Assembly: GCA_041497675.1 (NCBI GenBank) | Contig: JBGQGY010000014.1 | Location: forward strand, 1 to 42,513 | Length of the DNA: 42,513 bases | Source: a bacterium | Lineage (GTDB): Bacteria; Sysuimicrobiota; Sysuimicrobiia; Sysuimicrobiales; Humicultoraceae | Reading direction: 5' to 3' | Part shown: positions 5,266 to 28,731 of the stretch, piece by piece | Position numbering within the stretch: position 1 is the first letter of the stretch | Layout: each line of letters opens with the position of its first letter | Position numbers and translations under genes: made by a program | The notes under the pieces: model-generated | Seen by the model: the letters and a program-made list of their open reading frames with translations, nothing else | The model's database searches: none | Told to the model about the DNA's origin: nothing

Positions 5266-6618
5266 CTAGCCGAGATACACCCGCTCTTCGGGATACCGGA
5301 CACGCAGCGGTCGCTGCTGCCGAGCCAATCCATACACAACCGTCAACAGGCCCACCCGCCCACTGAACATCGTCATCATGACGATCAACCGGCCCCAGGT
5401 CGAGAGGTCGGGCGTGATACCGGTCGAGAGCCCCACCGTGCCAAACGCCGATGTCACCTCGAACAGGCTCGACAGGAAGTCGCGCCGTTCAACCTCGACC
5501 AGCAGCACGGTCATCGTGACGACGAAGGCCAGAGACACCAGCACGATCGTCACGGCCTTGTAGATCACGGAGACCGGCAACCGTCGGTGGAAGAGCACGG
5601 GCTCGTGGGCGCCCCGAATGGTGCTCCAGATAACGGCAAGCGGTGCAATGAAGGTTGTGGTCTTGATGCCGCCACCGGTCCCGCCGGGTGAGGCGCCGAT
5701 GAACATCAGCGCCACTATCAACATGAGCGTGGACTGCGCCAGGGCCCCGATCGGCACCGTGTTGAACCCCGCGGTTCTCGGCGTCACCGCCTGAAAAAGC
5801 GCGGCCAGCGCCTGCACCGGCGCGGACAACCCGCCCAGGGTCTTCGGGTTCCTGAACTCAAACAGCCAGATCAAGACTGCGCTCCCGACGATCAGGATAG
5901 CGGTGGACAGCAGCACGGTCCGTGAGTGGAGCGTCAGGCGCCTCGACCGCACGTCGAACAGCACCGTGAATCCGAGGCCGCCGACGACGATCAGGCCGGC
6001 GATCGTGAGTGAGACCACCGGGTCGCCAACGTAGCCGGTCAGGCTCCGAAACCCGCCCATCAGGTGGAAACCCGCGTTGTTGAAAGCGGAAATGCTGTGA
6101 AAGACCCCCAGGTAGATCGCGCGACCCACAGGCACCTCACGTACCCAGCGCAACGCCAAGATCGCCGCGCCGATCGCCTCGATCGACAGGGCAAGCACGA
6201 TGAGCCGCTTGGTGAAGCGCACGACCCCGCCCATCTGATAGAGGTTGTAAGCCTCGGTGAGAATGATCCTCTCCCGCAGTCCGATTCGCCACCCCAGCAG
6301 CATAGCCAGCAACGCCCATGACGTCATGTACCCAAATCCGCCGAGCTGGATCAGCAGCATGATGACCAGCTCGCCGAAGGGGGAGTAGTGATCGGCCGTG
6401 TCGACGACGACGAGACCCGTGACGCAGGTGGCGGAGTTCGCGGTAAAGAGCGCGGTCAAGAACGGTGTAGGCTGGCCGTTTTCTGCGGCGATCGGAAGAC
6501 TCAACAGCACCCCGCCTGCCAGGATCACGGCGGCGAAACCGAGCAGGATCGTCTGGGCCGGGGTGAGCCGCAGCCGGGCGGCAATCAGACGCCGTGGTAC
6601 GACGACCGTGCTGGCCAT
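5266..6618 (-). CDS. ktrB: Ktr/TrkH potassium uptake membrane subunit
   Basis: Pore-loop motifs SATCVTGL, SAFNNAGF, PRTAGF, SAFGTVGLS, plus GASPGGTGGGIKTTT. Start ATG 6618 or TTG 6639. Confidence 0.9.
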   Translation of the reverse strand: MASTVVVPRRLIAARLRLTPAQTILLGFAAVILAGGVLLSLPIAAENGQPTPFLTALFTANSATCVTGLVVVDTADHYSPFGELVIMLLIQLGGFGYMTSWALLAMLLGWRIGLRERIILTEAYNLYQMGGVVRFTKRLIVLALSIEAIGAAILALRWVREVPVGRAIYLGVFHSISAFNNAGFHLMGGFRSLTGYVGDPVVSLTIAGLIVVGGLGFTVLFDVRSRRLTLHSRTVLLSTAILIVGSAVLIWLFEFRNPKTLGGLSAPVQALAALFQAVTPRTAGFNTVPIGALAQSTLMLIVALMFIGASPGGTGGGIKTTTFIAPLAVIWSTIRGAHEPVLFHRRLPVSVIYKAVTIVLVSLAFVVTMTVLLVEVERRDFLSSLFEVTSAFGTVGLSTGITPDLSTWGRLIVMMTMFSGRVGLLTVVYGLARQQRPLRVRYPEERVYLG

Positions 6619-7843: not shown

Positions 7844-7894
7844 ACCGTTTCGCCCTCCTCGACAATCGTGACGCGGAAATATCGTCGCAAACGG

Positions 7895-8015
7895 GGAAAG
7901 TAGAAAGGGGACGGCATGAGCCATCCCCATAGCGTCGCCGGTACCACGGCGACCCGAGACGCACCGACCCTGCCCACGGGCGCTCGGGTGAGAAGCGGAT
8001 GGCTTCTACTTCCGC
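7895..8015 (-). ncRNA. L20 leader (ribosomal protein autoregulatory attenuator)
   Basis: AGAAGCCATCCGCTTCTCACC (7987-8007) resembles the Firmicutes L20 leader core. Downstream GGGGATGGC can pair with it or form a terminator GGGGATGGC-TCAT-GCCGTCCCC-TTTCTACTTT (stem 7907-7928). Confidence 0.78.
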
Positions 8016-8031
8016 CTGCACGACCGGACGG

Positions 8032-8061
8032 AGTATAGCACCGGCGGGCGAGTAGCGTCAA
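8032..8061 (-). promoter_or_regulatory. Sigma70/SigA promoter of infC-rpmI-rplT
   Basis: TTGACG - 18 nt - TATACT with extended TG, immediately upstream of the L20 leader. Confidence 0.7.
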
Positions 8062-8115
8062 TCAGCAGGGAGGACCGCCGCATGTCACCGAAAGAGTCAC
8101 CCAAGGAGGTGCCGT

Positions 8116-8919
8116 ATGAGTGAACAACCGCTTGCGCCACCGCCCCGGTCGGCGCTCACCATCCTCGGCACCAGCGCCCTCAGGACTCTGGCGGATGTCG
8201 GCCGTGCCTCTGTGATGATGCTTCAGGCCCTTGGCTGGATGCTCCGCGGCCGGTTGGAGTTGGGCGAGACCATCGAGCAGGTCAAACGCATCGGGTGGGA
8301 CTCTGGGGTGATCATCCTGGTCACCGGGACGTTCAGCGGGATGGTGCTGGCGTTCCAGACCTCGACCACCTTCCTCAGGTTCGGCGCGCAGGGATACGTC
8401 GGTGGCCTCGTCGGCATTTCGCTGGCGCGTGAGGCCGCTCCCATCTTCACGGCCATCACGCTGGCCGGCCGCGTGGGTGCGGGCATCGCCGCCGAGATTG
8501 GGACCATGACGGTCACCGAACAGGTCGACGCGCTGCGCGTGCTGGCGACCAACCCGGTGCGGTTCCTGGTGGTGCCCCGCCTGCTCGCCGCGGCGATGGC
8601 CATGCCGGCGCTCACGGTGCTGGCCGACGTCGTCGGCGGAATCGGCGGATATGTCGTCGCGACCGGCGCGGGGATCCACTCGGGGACGTTTTGGGGGTCG
8701 ATGCGTCAATTTCTCTATACCTATGATGTGTACGTCGGCCTGATCAAGGCCGCCGTGTTCGGGATCATCATCGCCGGGGTTGGCTGCTATCGGGGCCTGG
8801 AGACGAGTGGTGGCGCTGATGGCGTCGGCCGCGCGGCAACCGGGGCAGTTGTCACCGCCATCGTCATGGTGCTGGTCAGCAACTACTTTCTCAATCTGAT
8901 CTTCTTCCGCACGAATTGA
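8116..8919 (+). CDS. mlaE: MlaE family ABC transporter permease (lipid trafficking)
   Basis: REAAPIFTAITLAGRVGAGIAAEIGTMTVTEQVDAL, LVVPRLLA, GGADGVGRA motifs; AAGGAGGT RBS. Confidence 0.93.
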   Translation: MSEQPLAPPPRSALTILGTSALRTLADVGRASVMMLQALGWMLRGRLELGETIEQVKRIGWDSGVIILVTGTFSGMVLAFQTSTTFLRFGAQGYVGGLVGISLAREAAPIFTAITLAGRVGAGIAAEIGTMTVTEQVDALRVLATNPVRFLVVPRLLAAAMAMPALTVLADVVGGIGGYVVATGAGIHSGTFWGSMRQFLYTYDVYVGLIKAAVFGIIIAGVGCYRGLETSGGADGVGRAATGAVVTAIVMVLVSNYFLNLIFFRTN

Positions 8920-9704
8920 CACACGGCGTGGCCACCACCTCTGCTGGGGTCGAGGAGGATCTGGTCGTCTCCGTGCGCGACCTGTGGAAGCGTTTCGGGG
9001 CCACCGTGGCCCTCGCCGGGGTGTCGCTGTCCGTGCGGCGACGTGAGACCCAGGTCATCATGGGCCCCAGCGGGTGCGGCAAAAGCGTGCTGCTCAAGCA
9101 CCTGGTGGGGTTGCTGCGGCCGGACCGCGGCGAGATCCTTGTCTTCGGCCAGGCGGTCCACGCGATGCCCGAGGCGGCGCTCGATGCGTTGCGCATACGT
9201 CTGGGCGTGGTGTTCCAGGCGGCCGCCCTGTTCGACTCGCTCTCGGTGGCGGAGAACGTGGCCTTCCCGCTACGGCGGCACCGCCGCATGTCCGAGACCG
9301 AGATTGCGGCGCGGGTGACCGAGATGCTGGCCAAAGTCGAGATGGTAGGCACAGAATCGAAGATGCCCGCCGAACTCTCAGGCGGCATGCGCAAGCGTGT
9401 CGGCATCGCGCGCGCCCTTGCGCTGGACCCTTCGCTGATCCTGTATGATGAACCCACGGCGGGACTCGATCCGCTCACCGCGCGGACGGTGGACGACCTC
9501 ATCCTCCGCCTGCGCGATGATTTGGGGGTGACGTCGATCGTCGTAACCCACGACTTGGACAGCGCCTTCCGCCTGGCCGATCGGCTGGCCGTCATGGAGG
9601 CCGGGCACTTCGTCGCCGAGGGCCGGACGGACGAGATCCGGGCCTCGACCCAACCGTTCGTCAGACGCTTCCTCGCCACGCACTTCGAGGTCGCGCGCTC
9701 ATGA
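8916..9704 (+). CDS. mlaF: MlaF/Mkl family ABC transporter ATP-binding protein
   Basis: Walker A GPSGCGKS, FQAAALFDSL, LSGGMRKRV, YDEPTAGLDP, VTHD. Start TTG 8916 or GTG 8928. Confidence 0.92.
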   Translation: MTHGVATTSAGVEEDLVVSVRDLWKRFGATVALAGVSLSVRRRETQVIMGPSGCGKSVLLKHLVGLLRPDRGEILVFGQAVHAMPEAALDALRIRLGVVFQAAALFDSLSVAENVAFPLRRHRRMSETEIAARVTEMLAKVEMVGTESKMPAELSGGMRKRVGIARALALDPSLILYDEPTAGLDPLTARTVDDLILRLRDDLGVTSIVVTHDLDSAFRLADRLAVMEAGHFVAEGRTDEIRASTQPFVRRFLATHFEVARS

Positions 9705-11071
9705 CGTCGGAGGTCAAAGCCGGGCTGCTGACCGTCGTGGCGATCGCCATGCTGCTCTACGCAGTGTACTTCCTGAGCGGTGGCCTGGTCCGGGACAGAG
9801 GGTATGAGATCATCGTCCGCGTCGCCAACGCGGGTGGCGTGATCGTCGCCGCCCAGGTGCAGATGGCCGGTATCGACGTGGGTCAGGTCGCGCAGCTGCG
9901 GCTGAATCGCTTCAACCAGGCCGAGATCGTGCTGCGCATTCGGTCCGGTGTGTCGATTCCGACCGGATCGCGGTTTTCATTCGCCACGGCGGGTTTGTTG
10001 GGGCAGCCGTTCGTGACCATCACGCCGGGTCCGGCCGATGCGCCGCCCATGGCGCCCGGCACGGTGATCGCGGGCGAACTCCCCATCACGATTGAGGACC
10101 TGTTCGCGCGGGTGACCTCGGTCGCCACTCGCGCGGAGGAAGCCCTGAAGAACCTGAACCGGCTGATCGGCGATCCGCAGCTGGCCGAGGGACTGAGCGA
10201 GACCGTTCGCAACGCCAAGGACGCCACGGCGGCGATCCGTCAGGCGGCGGAGCACGTGCAGCGGATTGCCGACAACGTCGAGCGGACCACCCGGACGCTC
10301 GATCGGTCGATCAGCAGCGACGTGCCGGCGATCGCAAAGGAACTGCGGGCGATGTCGACCGACCTGGCGGCGGCCGCCCACGACGTTCGATCGATCGTGC
10401 ACGACGTCGCGGCCGACGGCCGAACCGCTTCCCAGGTGAAAGACACGATCGGAGCCATCCAGCGCACCGCCCAGCGGATCGAGAAGATGGCCAACGACCT
10501 CTCGGGCGTGATCAACGAACAGGAAGTGCGATCGGTTCGAGGCTCGATCGCCGAGGTGCAGTCCGCGGTCACCGAGGCCCGGCAGGCCGTGGGTGAAGCC
10601 CGGGGGTTGATTACCCGCGCCTCCACCGTGGTCGACCGCGTCGGTCGCATCCTCCCCGAGCGGCTGGACATCCCGGACTTCCGCACCAGCTACCGGCTGG
10701 AGTACGAGATCTACTACGCGTCGCGGGTGGGGCACGACGTGACGTTTACGTTGCTCCCGGGCGCGCGACGACAGTACATCTTTTCATGGCGCGACATCGG
10801 CCAGACCGGCCGGCTGGGTCTGCAGGTCGGCAACCGGCTCGACGATTACCTCACGTTTCGCTGGGGGTTGATCGACTCGCAGGTCGGCGTCGGGCTCGAC
10901 TATCAGCCGGCGCGGGCGTCTCTCTACTCCGTGGACCTCTACAACTTCAACCAGATCACGCTCAACGTGTACGCGCACTACTTCCTCCAGCCCGAATACG
11001 GCATCTCCTTCCGCTTGACCAACCTTTTCCAAACCCCAGGCCTCGGCATCGGCTACTTCCGCCGGTTCTGA
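9701..11071 (+). CDS. mlaD: MCE/MlaD family protein with long helical linker and C-terminal beta-rich domain
   Basis: N-terminal TM (EVKAGL...), MCE domain (VQMAGIDVGQV, GLLGQPFVTITPG), roughly 190 aa of heptad-like helices, then alternating beta-strands ending in GIGYFRRF. Confidence 0.88.
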   Translation: MTSEVKAGLLTVVAIAMLLYAVYFLSGGLVRDRGYEIIVRVANAGGVIVAAQVQMAGIDVGQVAQLRLNRFNQAEIVLRIRSGVSIPTGSRFSFATAGLLGQPFVTITPGPADAPPMAPGTVIAGELPITIEDLFARVTSVATRAEEALKNLNRLIGDPQLAEGLSETVRNAKDATAAIRQAAEHVQRIADNVERTTRTLDRSISSDVPAIAKELRAMSTDLAAAAHDVRSIVHDVAADGRTASQVKDTIGAIQRTAQRIEKMANDLSGVINEQEVRSVRGSIAEVQSAVTEARQAVGEARGLITRASTVVDRVGRILPERLDIPDFRTSYRLEYEIYYASRVGHDVTFTLLPGARRQYIFSWRDIGQTGRLGLQVGNRLDDYLTFRWGLIDSQVGVGLDYQPARASLYSVDLYNFNQITLNVYAHYFLQPEYGISFRLTNLFQTPGLGIGYFRRF

Positions 11072-11085
11072 GACGCGTCAGAACC

Positions 11086-11121
11086 CAAACAAAGAGAGCA
11101 CTGCGAATCCGCAGTGCTCCC
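11086..11121 (-). terminator. Intrinsic terminator (possibly bidirectional) between micro-ORF and mlaD
   Basis: 10-bp perfect stem GAGCACTGCG-4nt-CGCAGTGCTC (11096-11119), followed on the minus strand by TCTTTGTTT. Confidence 0.8.
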
Positions 11122-11142
11122 AAGATGAAGCGCGGCCTGCGC

Positions 11143-11178
11143 TTACCGCTTCTTCTTGGCCGCCTTCTTCTTCGCCAC
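11143..11178 (-). CDS. Putative 11-aa Lys-rich micropeptide MAKKKAAKKKR
   Basis: GGAGAGGAGG RBS, 8-nt spacer, GTG GCG AAG AAG AAG GCG GCC AAG AAG AAG CGG TAA, then a terminator. Below the ORF-track cutoff. Confidence 0.6.
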   Translation of the reverse strand: MAKKKAAKKKR

Positions 11179-11245
11179 GCTAATCGCCTCCTCTCCAGAA
11201 ACGCCATCGGGAATCTGTTCAATCATTCCCGCATTCGGGGCGAGA

Positions 11246-11274
11246 ACATTCGCGAACCGCCACAAAATTCCTTC
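11246..11274 (-). promoter_or_regulatory. SigH-like promoter upstream of micro-ORF
   Basis: GAAGGAATT - 11 nt - CGCGAATGT resembles the Firmicutes sigmaH consensus (RNAGGAWWW-11/12-RNNGAAT); AT-rich tract upstream. Confidence 0.45.
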
Positions 11275-11322
11275 AGGACGGTTCGATCTTACGTAAAAAT
11301 TCTTTCCCAACGCGTGAGGGGG

Positions 11323-12369
11323 CTAGACGCGGAGCGTTGTCTTGAACGTCTCGACGACGATCGACACGTGTTCGGGGACGATGTGACGGTGAGTAACCAG
11401 TCGAAGCCGGCGCGCGCCGATCACCGACACCCGGACCCCGCGGCTGCGCAGGAGATCGGCGAAGGGGCGCGCCTCGCGCTCGAGGTCGAGTCGAACCATG
11501 TTGGTCTGCACGCGCGCCATGTCGACGCGGACACCGGGCACCGATGTGAGTCCCTCCGCCAGCAACCGCGCGACGCGGTGATCATCGGCAAGGCGGTCGG
11601 TCATCTGCTCGAGGGCGACGACGCCGGCGGCGGCGAGCACGCCGGCCTGACGCATCCCACCGCCCAGCATCTTGCGGAAGTGTCGCGCGCGCGCGATCAG
11701 CTCGCGGTCCCCGCACAGGAGCGAGCCCACCGGCGCCGACAGGCCCTTCGACAAACAGAACCCCACCGAGTCCGCCGGTGCGGCCAGACGCGCCGCCGGG
11801 ACGCCGAGCGCCACCGCGGCGTTGAAGATGCGCGCGCCGTCGAGATGCACGCGGAGACCGTGCCGGTGTGCGGCCTGGGCCAAGTCGTCGACCTGCTCGA
11901 CCGTTGCCACCGTGCCCCCGTGACGGTTGTGAGTGTTTTCGAGACAGACCAGGCGGGTGGGCGCGTAGTGATGGTCCGGCGGGCGCAGGACGGATTCGAG
12001 CTGCGCGGCGCTGATGTGTCCCCACTCGGTGGCCAGCGGTCGTGGGAGCGTCCCGGCCAGCGTGGCGAGCGCGCCGGCTTCCAAGCCGTAGATGTGGGCG
12101 TCGGTCTCGACGACGACCTCATCGCCTTTCTGGGTCTGGCTCATCACCGCCAGGACATTGGCCATCGTCCCGGTCGGCACGAACACGGCCGCCTGCTTGC
12201 CGACGCGCTCGGCGGCGAGTGCCTCGAGCGCATTGATCGTTGGATCCTCTCCGTAGACGTCGTCGCCGACTTCCGCGCGCGCCATGGCGTCACGCATCGC
12301 CTCGGTCGGCTGCGTCACGGTGTCGCTGCGAAGGTCGATCACCGCGCCGACGGAGTGTTCACTCTTCAT
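11323..12369 (-). CDS. ltaE: Low-specificity L-threonine aldolase (PLP)
   Basis: [70 protein letters not shown]. Start ATG 12369 or GTG 12342. Confidence 0.93.
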
Positions 12370-27528: not shown

Positions 27529-28731
27529 CTAGCAGACTGGATAGCGGCCCTCGGCCAGGTCCTGAGAAAACTGGCGGATATTGGCAAGCTCGTGATCGAG
27601 CATCTCACGGATTCGGCGTTCGACCGCGGTGCGGCGCGCGTGTTTGGACAGCACGACCTGGGCGGCCGCGATCTTTGGCTGATCGATCGGCACGCCGATC
27701 TGACTCAGCATCCAGATGTAGATTTCCTCGATGCCCGGGACCTCGCGATGAATCTTCGCGGCGATCTGGTTCGTCATGATCGTGTAGATCTTGCCTACGT
27801 GCGAGACCGGGTTCTTGCCGGCGGCGGCCTCCGTGCCCATCGGACGGTTAAGGGCAATGACGCCGTTGACCTTGTTGCCGCGGCCGACCTGCCCGGAGTC
27901 GCCGCTCTCGGCCGACGTGCCGGTGACCGAGAGATACATCCCGCCCAGCCCGCGACCAGGGACATCGAGCGTATTGATATAGAGATGGGTGTGCGTAAAA
28001 CCGTGCTTGCCCTTCGTCCTGTCCATCACCGCGTTGTGCAGGTCGGTCTTGCGCCGGAAGTAGGTACTCTCGCTGTCGATGAAACGATCGACAAACGCGA
28101 CCGCGGCCGTCAGATGCAGCTCGCGGTTGCGGCGGTACCCCATGACCTTGACGTCCTCGCCGACTTCAGGAAACTCCAGTTTGAACTCGCGGGAGTTCAG
28201 CAGGCGTTCGGTGTCCAGGACGATCTGTTCGGTGGGCGACAACGGCGCATACCCGACGGCGGCCGATGTGTCGTTCGCGGGCGCCTCGCTGCGGTCGAAG
28301 ATGTCGACCAGTTCGGGCGACCCGGGCTTGATCTGGACATCGTACTTCACATGCAGCTCGGGGTCGACGAACCTGAGGTACTCTCGGATCCACGCTTTGG
28401 CGGTGTCGATCGCGATCTGCTCCACCGGAATCACCTGGCCCATCGCCGACGCCGTCGCGCGATCGCCGAAGATGAGCCGCATGGGATCGGTGATCCGGCC
28501 ACCACCAAGCTTGATCTCGGCGTCGCCGGCGACGAGAAAGGCTTTGTCGATGTTGTGATGCAGGATCTTGCCAAACCGCTTCAGGTACTCTTTGCTGAGC
28601 GCGATCGAGACCCGCTCCATGATGGCGTCGCAAATGGAATCGGGATGCCCCACGCCTTTGCGTTCGACGATCTCGACCTGGTGCTGGGACACGGGGGTGC
28701 GGGCCAGCACGTCAACAGTGATATTGCGCAT
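27529..28731 (-). CDS. mat: Methionine adenosyltransferase, archaeal-type (SAM synthetase)
   Basis: VEIVERKGVGHPDSICD, HHNIDK, ANDTS, GEDVKVMG, TGTSAESGDSGQVGRGN, EAAAGKNPVSHVGKIY, LSQIG.PID.P are archaeal-type family motifs. AGGAGGT RBS. Confidence 0.92.
   Translation of the reverse strand: MRNITVDVLARTPVSQHQVEIVERKGVGHPDSICDAIMERVSIALSKEYLKRFGKILHHNIDKAFLVAGDAEIKLGGGRITDPMRLIFGDRATASAMGQVIPVEQIAIDTAKAWIREYLRFVDPELHVKYDVQIKPGSPELVDIFDRSEAPANDTSAAVGYAPLSPTEQIVLDTERLLNSREFKLEFPEVGEDVKVMGYRRNRELHLTAAVAFVDRFIDSESTYFRRKTDLHNAVMDRTKGKHGFTHTHLYINTLDVPGRGLGGMYLSVTGTSAESGDSGQVGRGNKVNGVIALNRPMGTEAAAGKNPVSHVGKIYTIMTNQIAAKIHREVPGIEEIYIWMLSQIGVPIDQPKIAAAQVVLSKHARRTAVERRIREMLDHELANIRQFSQDLAEGRYPVC

Follow-up and report, generated by a model that had tools for sequence, protein, structure and literature searches.

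Among the closest described counterparts of the locus reported here are the ribosomal proteins bS22, bL37, bTHX and eL41, which bind ribosomal RNA (rRNA), are longer than 20 amino acids (aa), and were found in ribosome structures. The locus is a lysine-rich unit in a stretch of bacterial DNA of 42,513 nucleotides (nt) (contig JBGQGY010000014.1; the whole stretch is called the window). The unit contains an open reading frame (ORF) of 11 codons, for the peptide MAKKKAAKKKR, between ltaE and the convergent mlaD gene. Like the four ribosomal proteins, the predicted peptide is very short, strongly basic, highly conserved and prone to omission from annotation. Unlike them, it has only 11 residues, and no sequence relation to any Pfam, NCBIfam or PDB entry was detected. 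It shares an AKK-type composition with the histone-H1-like nucleoid proteins (Pfam HC2, PF07382), but these are much longer repeat proteins and nothing in the unit matches Pfam. As in the his, phe and thr attenuator leaders, there is a very short ORF with runs of codons for one amino acid, together with hairpins and an intrinsic terminator; unlike in those leaders, no co-oriented gene follows and the terminator lies outside the alternative pairings. C-rich seeds are common in the small RNAs of Gram-positive bacteria, and to our knowledge the ORFs of known dual-function small RNAs are all far longer than 11 codons. The RNA of the lysine-rich unit is purine-rich, which sets it apart from the dual-function small RNAs, and we know of no base-pairing target for it. 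It resembles dual-function small RNAs of the kind reviewed in PMC12612679 in its short predicted transcript, promoter motif, terminator, strong predicted secondary structure, nucleotide conservation, and small ORF with a good ribosome-binding site. The sequence comparisons described below indicate that the unit is real and under strong selection, and that it is probably a real micro-gene that has not been annotated. With somewhat more confidence than doubt, we read it as a translated 11-codon micro-gene whose product is a polycationic peptide and whose small RNA is structured and possibly dual-function.

We scanned a genome collection with a degenerate pattern of the ORF and found four loci (L001 to L004). 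In the window, the pattern had a single match even when two mismatches were allowed, compared with 0.00 expected and none in 100 shuffles. One of the four loci, L003, is in a metagenome-assembled genome (MAG) of an uncultured bacterium and is collinear with the window over 12 kb, with 77% identity and the same order of ltaE, the lysine-rich unit, and a convergent MlaD-like gene. The flanking proteins are 74-82% identical between the two, and four-fold degenerate sites are 46-59% identical. In the unit, identity was 95% from the ribosome-binding site to the start codon, 97% in the ORF, 88% from the stop codon to the terminator (57 nt of non-coding DNA), and 92% over the 111 nt from the ribosome-binding site to the terminator. 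In the leader it was 66%. A 60-nt interval over the ORF was among the most conserved of the entire 12-kb alignment. The only difference in the ORF is a synonymous change from CGG to AGG, and L003 retains the whole arrangement, from the ribosome-binding site with its 8-nt spacing through the start and the 11 codons to the stop. An earlier note on this DNA, made from the sequence alone, had proposed the micro-gene and had named loss of the frame or ribosome-binding site in relatives as one outcome that would speak against it. L003 and 13 database proteins keep both, and L003 has the conserved ribosome-binding site, ORF and terminator with a synonymous change that the note had suggested looking for.

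We compared the 11 codons across 15 sequences: the window, L003, and the 13 database proteins (P0001, P0003, P0004, P0005, P0009, P0010, P0011, and P0014-P0019). A profile search of 1.84 billion representatives gave five matches at E values up to 0.001. Two long repetitive proteins were set aside (P0006, 1073 aa with eight matched stretches, and P0007, 2151 aa with six), and two matches that were not significant (P0012, E 5.8; P0013, E 7) were omitted from all counts. The latter of these, P0013, ends in VAKKKAAKKKK. Residues 2-10 (AKKKAAKKK) were identical in all 15 sequences, and residue 11 was always basic (R in 14, K in one). A stop followed directly after residue 11 in 14 of the 15. The start position reads V in nine sequences and M in six; an M that is internal to a called protein shows that the codon at precisely the proposed start is ATG. 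In P0011 and the members of its cluster, the preceding residues differ (EEANT compared with EEAIS), with the distance from EE-A to the start unchanged. Reading the P0011 cluster back into DNA gave GGAGG followed by 8 nt, with EEA as GAG GAG GC ending 8 nt upstream of the start. Among the close relatives (window, P0001, P0003, P0009 and P0010), defined as those that could be found with upstream words alone, 6 of the 16 positions from M29 to S44 vary, compared with none of the 11 in the tail. This variation was limited to the loop of the leader hairpin and the base triplet before the start. The patterns at the start, at the ribosome-binding site and at residue 11 are those that a short coding frame with its start codon and ribosome-binding site would be expected to leave. 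The one sequence without the usual stop, P0018, is one of the six members of the P0011 cluster. It reads ...MAKKKAAKKKRKQDRT on a 1.2-kb contig, continuing for five residues, and reflects either a change in the stop codon or an error in sequencing. A search for the 3' region of the relatives, using the other reading frame across the ORF and terminator, gave two candidates, neither of which scored.

Elements of the lysine-rich unit. All are on the minus strand, in window numbering, and are listed 5' to 3' after the ltaE stop codon (TAG, 11325-11323).
Element	Position	Strand	Remarks
Conserved upstream block TTGGGAAAGAATTTTTACGTAAGATCGAACCG, 32 nt, directly past the ltaE stop	11279..11310	-	Near-identical in L003; consistent with the P0001 and P0005 translations
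SigH-type promoter motif AGGAATT-N11-CGCGAAT (AGGA-N17-GAAT)	11248..11272	-	Boxes and spacing identical in L003
5' leader hairpin, stem CGGGAAU/AUUCCCG, variable loop	11208..11231	-	Holds the non-conserved ATG 11226
Shine-Dalgarno sequence GGAGAGGAGG	11187..11196	-	8-nt spacer to GTG; same in L003; EE-A in 13/13 database proteins
11-codon ORF, GTG to TAA, MAKKKAAKKKR	11143..11178	-	GTG GCG AAG AAG AAG GCG GCC AAG AAG AAG CGG TAA
Alternative long hairpin, codons 3-7 (AAGAAGAAGGCGGCC) with post-stop GGCCGCGCUUCAUCUU	11122..11172	-	Predicted fold; excludes the small hairpin
Small post-stop hairpin AAGCGC-AGGCC-GCGCUU	11128..11144	-	6 pairs; begins within the stop codon
Intrinsic terminator, 12-pair stem-loop (11121-11094) and U-tract, tail TTTGTTTGGG	11086..11121	-	Stem sequence identical in L003

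The anatomy that the earlier note had described was found, with one correction. The ORF and its strong Shine-Dalgarno sequence are present, the small hairpin after the stop is as described, and the AGGAATT-N11-CGCGAAT element lies in an AT-rich patch. The terminator with its T-tract is also there, and its stem has 12 pairs, not 10. In a 1.5-kb region, a terminator scan found four terminator-like sites, compared with a mean of 1.0 in shuffles. The U-tract sets the orientation of the unit as minus strand, since on the plus strand there is no T-tract behind either hairpin; a plus-strand function as 3' untranslated region (UTR) of the mla genes was ruled out on the same ground. GGAGG is a common sequence, occurring 119 times in the window when both strands are counted, but it also stands 5-6 nt ahead of the mlaE, topA and metK starts, indicating that the organism does use it. 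The placement between ltaE and the convergent mlaD was supported by family matches of both neighbors. The upstream neighbor encodes a threonine-aldolase-type pyridoxal-phosphate enzyme (Beta_elim_lyase, E 1.8e-106; 325 bits for the NCBIfam low-specificity L-threonine aldolase, cut-off 312). The MlaD-domain gene, the last of an mlaE-mlaF-mlaD cluster, ends at 11071.

Transcription of the unit may start from its own promoter. G+C content drops to 0.49-0.54 at 11150-11349, compared with approximately 0.65-0.75 in the flanking genes. The full motif occurs once in the window, where 0.06 occurrences are expected, and at least once in 5 of 100 shuffles. The boxes and their spacing are identical in L003 despite the divergence of the adjacent leader. 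According to PMC12456013, the core promoter of SigH in a Sporomusa species is AGGA/GAAT with a spacer of 17-18 nt, and is said to resemble the SigH promoters of Bacillus subtilis and Clostridioides difficile. The AGGA-N17-GAAT of the window has this core, which is that of Bacillota (PMC12456013); SigH would be a putative factor in the organism studied here. No sigma-70-type promoter was predicted in this region of the window, the conserved upstream block included, or in L003. The upstream block is possibly a regulator site or part of the promoter.

In the mechanism that we favor, the SigH-type motif would drive a transcript with a hairpin-bearing leader of approximately 65 nt. Transcription would start a few bases past GAAT, giving an RNA of approximately 150 nt. 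An exposed, strong ribosome-binding site would then direct initiation at GTG of the 11-codon ORF, followed by the post-stop hairpin and the intrinsic terminator. The product would be fMet-AKKKAAKKKR. The initiator Met is removed when Ala follows, and because Ala follows it here, the peptide would probably be trimmed to the ten-residue AKKKAAKKKR. A free polycation of this kind would most likely bind a polyanion electrostatically; the ribosome (through rRNA), DNA and polyphosphate would be the natural candidate targets for a ten-mer with a charge of +7. It is purely speculative that expression would occur in stationary phase and that the peptide would bind the ribosome or the nucleoid. The mRNA, which is predicted to be tightly structured and is conserved at the nucleotide level, may carry a second role as RNA.

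We evaluated whether a longer frame might be the gene. No stop interrupts the Lys frame over 59 codons, up to the TAG of ltaE, whose frame it shares; the earlier note had overlooked this. It has candidate upstream starts at TTG 11310, TTG 11265 and ATG 11226, and the close, window-type relatives keep ATG 11226. The open frame accounts for the proteins of 27, 40 and 55 aa that gene callers made from window DNA (P0008, P0002 and the 55-aa frame). Gene calls at the homologous site in relatives are likewise "hypothetical proteins" of 27-57 aa (27, 40, 52, 55 and 57 aa). A real gene of 27, 40 or 55 aa with a Lys-rich C-terminal tail is nevertheless hardly credible. In the L003 leader, two insertions of 1 nt each, past the promoter and ahead of the ribosome-binding site, shift the frame, and there are two in-frame stops 5' of the GTG and no alternative start codon past the last of these. 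P0005, an independently assembled sequence, has the L003 frame across the homologous DNA, with TGG at the position of the L003 TGA, and neither P0011 nor P0005 has an N-terminal part related to that of the window. ATG 11226 is within a hairpin stem and is not preceded by a spaced ribosome-binding site. Differences between the window and L003 upstream of the GTG are spread over codon positions 1, 2 and 3 without periodicity (8, 9 and 11 of 44 each), whereas in the flanking genes of the same alignment codon positions 1 and 2 are 84-89% identical and position 3 is 53-65% identical. As judged from this comparison, the 55-aa frame upstream of the GTG has not evolved in the manner of coding sequence. 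The absence of codon periodicity, together with the frameshifts and stops in L003, indicates that the 27-, 40- and 55-aa readings are artefacts of reading through the promoter and 5' leader, and in the sequences compared the frame of 11 codons alone is preserved. We also rejected the possibility that read-through of the TAG extends ltaE at its C-terminus: in L003, ltaE terminates at a TAA that lies in a different frame, and ltaE can be aligned up to the ends of its family models, making the shared frame in the window a coincidence.

A non-coding, structured small RNA of approximately 150 nt is the main rival, next after the coding reading, and we give it a real but clearly smaller chance. Its functional parts would be the purine-rich AAGAAGAAG-GCGGCC-AAGAAGAAG and the hairpins, and the arrangement of ribosome-binding site, GTG and stop would be incidental or merely RNA-stabilizing. 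Several observations that weigh against translation as the main function bear on it. The 57 nt after the stop and the segment from ribosome-binding site to terminator (88% and 92% identical) are conserved well above four-fold sites (approximately 50%), from which it follows that selection acts on the RNA sequence too, and could be acting on it alone. None of the nine Ala and Lys codons differs between the window and L003. Conserved Ala codons in the flanking genes were identical in 140 of 279 cases and AAG was kept in 19 of 22, giving a chance of roughly 5% for no change in nine, so that the absence of synonymous change is suggestive rather than decisive of an RNA constraint. Total invariance is odd for a peptide expected to act through charge alone, and codons 3-7 are buried in a predicted hairpin of 14 pairs. 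In addition, the DNA-level comparison rests on one relative, L003; the distant protein matches were found through the tail itself, making its invariance among them partly a matter of ascertainment; the eight database proteins with V at the start are known as protein, and of the codons for V only GTG could initiate; and P0018 reads past the stop. Nucleotide conservation of the ORF and its 3' flank thus appears to exceed coding needs, and the region may have a role as RNA, the outcome that the earlier note had named as a refutation if it were the only role. On the structural side, both RNAs are predicted to fold into a leader hairpin, an unpaired ribosome-binding site, the long hairpin and then the terminator, with the long hairpin, in which codons 3-7 pair with GGCCGCGCUUCAUCUU, present in the minimum-free-energy and consensus structures of both sequences. 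The leader hairpin has seven pairs common to both DNAs, one of them through a change from U-A to U-G; its loop, the site of amino-acid variation among the close relatives, varies between them in both sequence and length. Compared with shuffles, the predicted fold of the window RNA is good (z = -3.8). The terminator stem has the same sequence in L003, and a single post-stop hairpin pair changes there from G-C to A-U. This is the only double (compensatory) change and has no statistical weight, with two sequences and 243 of 500 shuffles doing as well. The L003 fold is less convincing (z = -2.4; 6 of 200 shuffles as good), and its minimum-free-energy structure (frequency 0.007) lacks the terminator. 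What speaks for translation is that the changes respect the frame: position 11 has CGG, AGG or a codon for Lys, and position 1 has GTG or ATG. Furthermore, the 8-nt spacing to the ribosome-binding site is kept despite a different spacer sequence in the P0011 cluster, the stop is kept in 14 of 15 sequences, the ribosome-binding site is unpaired in the consensus fold, and there is no match to an Rfam family.

Two other explanations concern the relation of the unit to its neighbors. It might have no promoter of its own and be a second cistron or 3'-UTR element of the ltaE transcript, with motifs that serve 3' processing or stability of the ltaE mRNA. There is no terminator from the ltaE stop to the ORF (the sole minus-strand terminator is that at 11121-11094), synteny with ltaE is kept in L003, and the missing sigma-70-type prediction fits. 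We consider this improbable, however, because the AGGA and GAAT boxes are conserved while the leader just downstream is only 66% identical, they lie in an AT-rich patch of the kind typical of promoters, and an internal promoter is compatible with co-transcription. With no terminator in between, ltaE transcripts probably also include the lysine-rich unit. The description "stand-alone" in the earlier note therefore holds in the sense of a conserved promoter motif belonging to the unit, and not in the sense of exclusively separate transcription. In the fold of the whole intergenic region, UCACGC (11317-11312), directly past the ltaE stop, pairs with GCGUGG (11181-11176), which includes the GTG; both are on the minus strand. 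L003 can form these pairs as well, with a change from A-U to G-U. If real, it would mask the start of the micro-ORF in ltaE read-through transcripts and not in the shorter, promoter-derived RNA. The unit might also be a lysine-sensing leader peptide, in which stalling at the six Lys codons switches the RNA and read-through yields antisense RNA into the convergent mla operon. Runs of codons for one amino acid are typical of amino-acid attenuator leaders, Lys accounts for 6 of the 11 codons (all AAG, in two runs of three), and two mutually exclusive hairpins surround the stop codon. The terminator stem is in neither of these hairpins, however, and forms separately from the switch in the consensus and centroid folds as well as in the window's minimum-free-energy structure. 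The unit is followed by the 3' end of the convergent gene and by no co-oriented gene; infC-rpmI-rplT, the nearest minus-strand genes downstream, lie at a distance of 3 kb and have their own leader. With the terminator outside the switch and no co-oriented gene downstream, attenuation is disfavored, and we consider it very unlikely, in agreement with the earlier note, which had dismissed an attenuator leader for lack of a co-oriented gene.

Searches for known families gave no assignment for the micro-gene. At gathering thresholds, Rfam 15 had no match in the window, L001, L003 or L004, and at E values up to 10 there were three chance-level matches in 11000-11400, all far below threshold. No tRNA or tmRNA was found. 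The 11-aa peptide itself is shorter than the minimum length of the family and structure search tools. With longer frames as queries, there was no Pfam family for the 55-aa frame; the 27-aa frame scored 16.1 bits against the NCBIfam PFL_1563 small-protein family (cut-off 60), and none of nine relatives matched anything. Matches in the PDB were to designed proteins only, at chance level. "AKKKAAKKK" appeared in none of the literature searched, and there was no report of such a peptide in the literature on lysine-rich small proteins, polycationic short ORFs or small ribosomal proteins.

Lysine/alanine modules occur elsewhere. L001 and L004, in MAGs of the candidate phyla radiation (CPR), each have a stand-alone ORF of 30 aa (MAKKKAAKKKVAKKAAKKKVAKKKAAKKKR; 5944-6036, plus strand, in both) with its own terminator. 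The two proteins are 100% identical, with four synonymous and no non-synonymous differences between the genes. The loci are syntenic with flanks that are 66-72% identical and neighboring proteins that are approximately 50% identical, and approximately 140 nt upstream are also conserved. By this comparison, the 30-aa ORF is under strong purifying selection. Like the 11-codon unit, it stands alone with a terminator, and it starts with MAKKKAAKKK and ends with AKKKAAKKKR. Unlike the unit, it is three times longer and AT-rich, has other neighbors, and has no evident ribosome-binding site by its ATG. No family, PDB match or name was found for it, and an Atlas search gave unnamed small-protein clusters, the sole named neighbor (17% HC2 members, score 0.86) being below the counting level. 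Stand-alone lysine/alanine-rich micro-proteins are therefore real genes somewhere, which raises the prior for the 11-codon version but does not show kinship of the unit with the 30-aa ORF. The remaining locus, L002 (1606-2871, plus strand), was rejected as an unrelated match: the module is the tail (...APKKKVAKKKAAKKKR) of a 421-aa protein in a Hyphomicrobiales MAG.

We made several other observations in the window. The convergent gene (9701-11071, plus strand; L003 6093-7460, minus strand) encodes a conserved MlaD-domain protein of 456 aa, with the MlaD domain at residues 33-110, a long coiled-coil-like middle, and the C-terminus ...GIGYFRRF. The terminal aromatic residue is reminiscent of outer-membrane beta-barrel proteins. 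A 13-codon ORF at 8082-8123 (plus strand; MSPKESPKEVPYE) begins 8 nt after a GGAGG and overlaps the start of mlaE. It is probably due to chance, as the region is not conserved and L003 has a 34-nt insertion and an 11-nt deletion there. The S-adenosylmethionine synthetase (27529-28731, minus strand) matches Pfam AdoMet_Synthase PF01941 (E 1.5e-161), which we take to be the archaeal-type family and unusual for a bacterium. Upstream of infC-rpmI-rplT there is a sub-threshold match to L20_leader (7893-8017, minus strand; 33.5 bits compared with a threshold of 58.7, E 2e-4). It overlaps 7988-8047 (minus strand), the 60 nt at which conservation in the 12-kb alignment with L003 is highest (97% identity), and 7893-8047 is probably a divergent L20 leader. 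The gene order dprA-topA-xerC ... pyrH-uppS-cdsA-dxr-ispG is presumably Bacillus-like. The L20_leader match and the gene order are hints of a Bacillota-like lineage.

Gene callers now cover the site with mutually inconsistent "hypothetical proteins" of 27-57 aa. If the 11 codons are translated, the unit would be an unusually small, conserved stand-alone gene, far under the length limits of gene callers. A more far-reaching reading, which we consider rather unlikely, is that it is among the shortest free-standing bacterial genes, with a promoter and a terminator of its own, encoding a stoichiometric ribosome or nucleoid ligand of 10-11 residues in a Bacillota-like lineage, under a SigH-type promoter, and belonging to a wider, so far unrecognized class of AKK-module micro-proteins that includes the 30-aa ORF of the CPR. 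If the unit functions only as RNA, it would represent a new family of conserved small RNAs and a caution that small RNAs can look like ORFs. The start codon, synonymous recoding of the ORF, and the stems can be mutated independently, making the locus a clean test case for peptide compared with RNA function. More broadly, the locus suggests that small polycationic peptides may be a class of ligands, of nucleic acids or of the ribosome, that has been overlooked.

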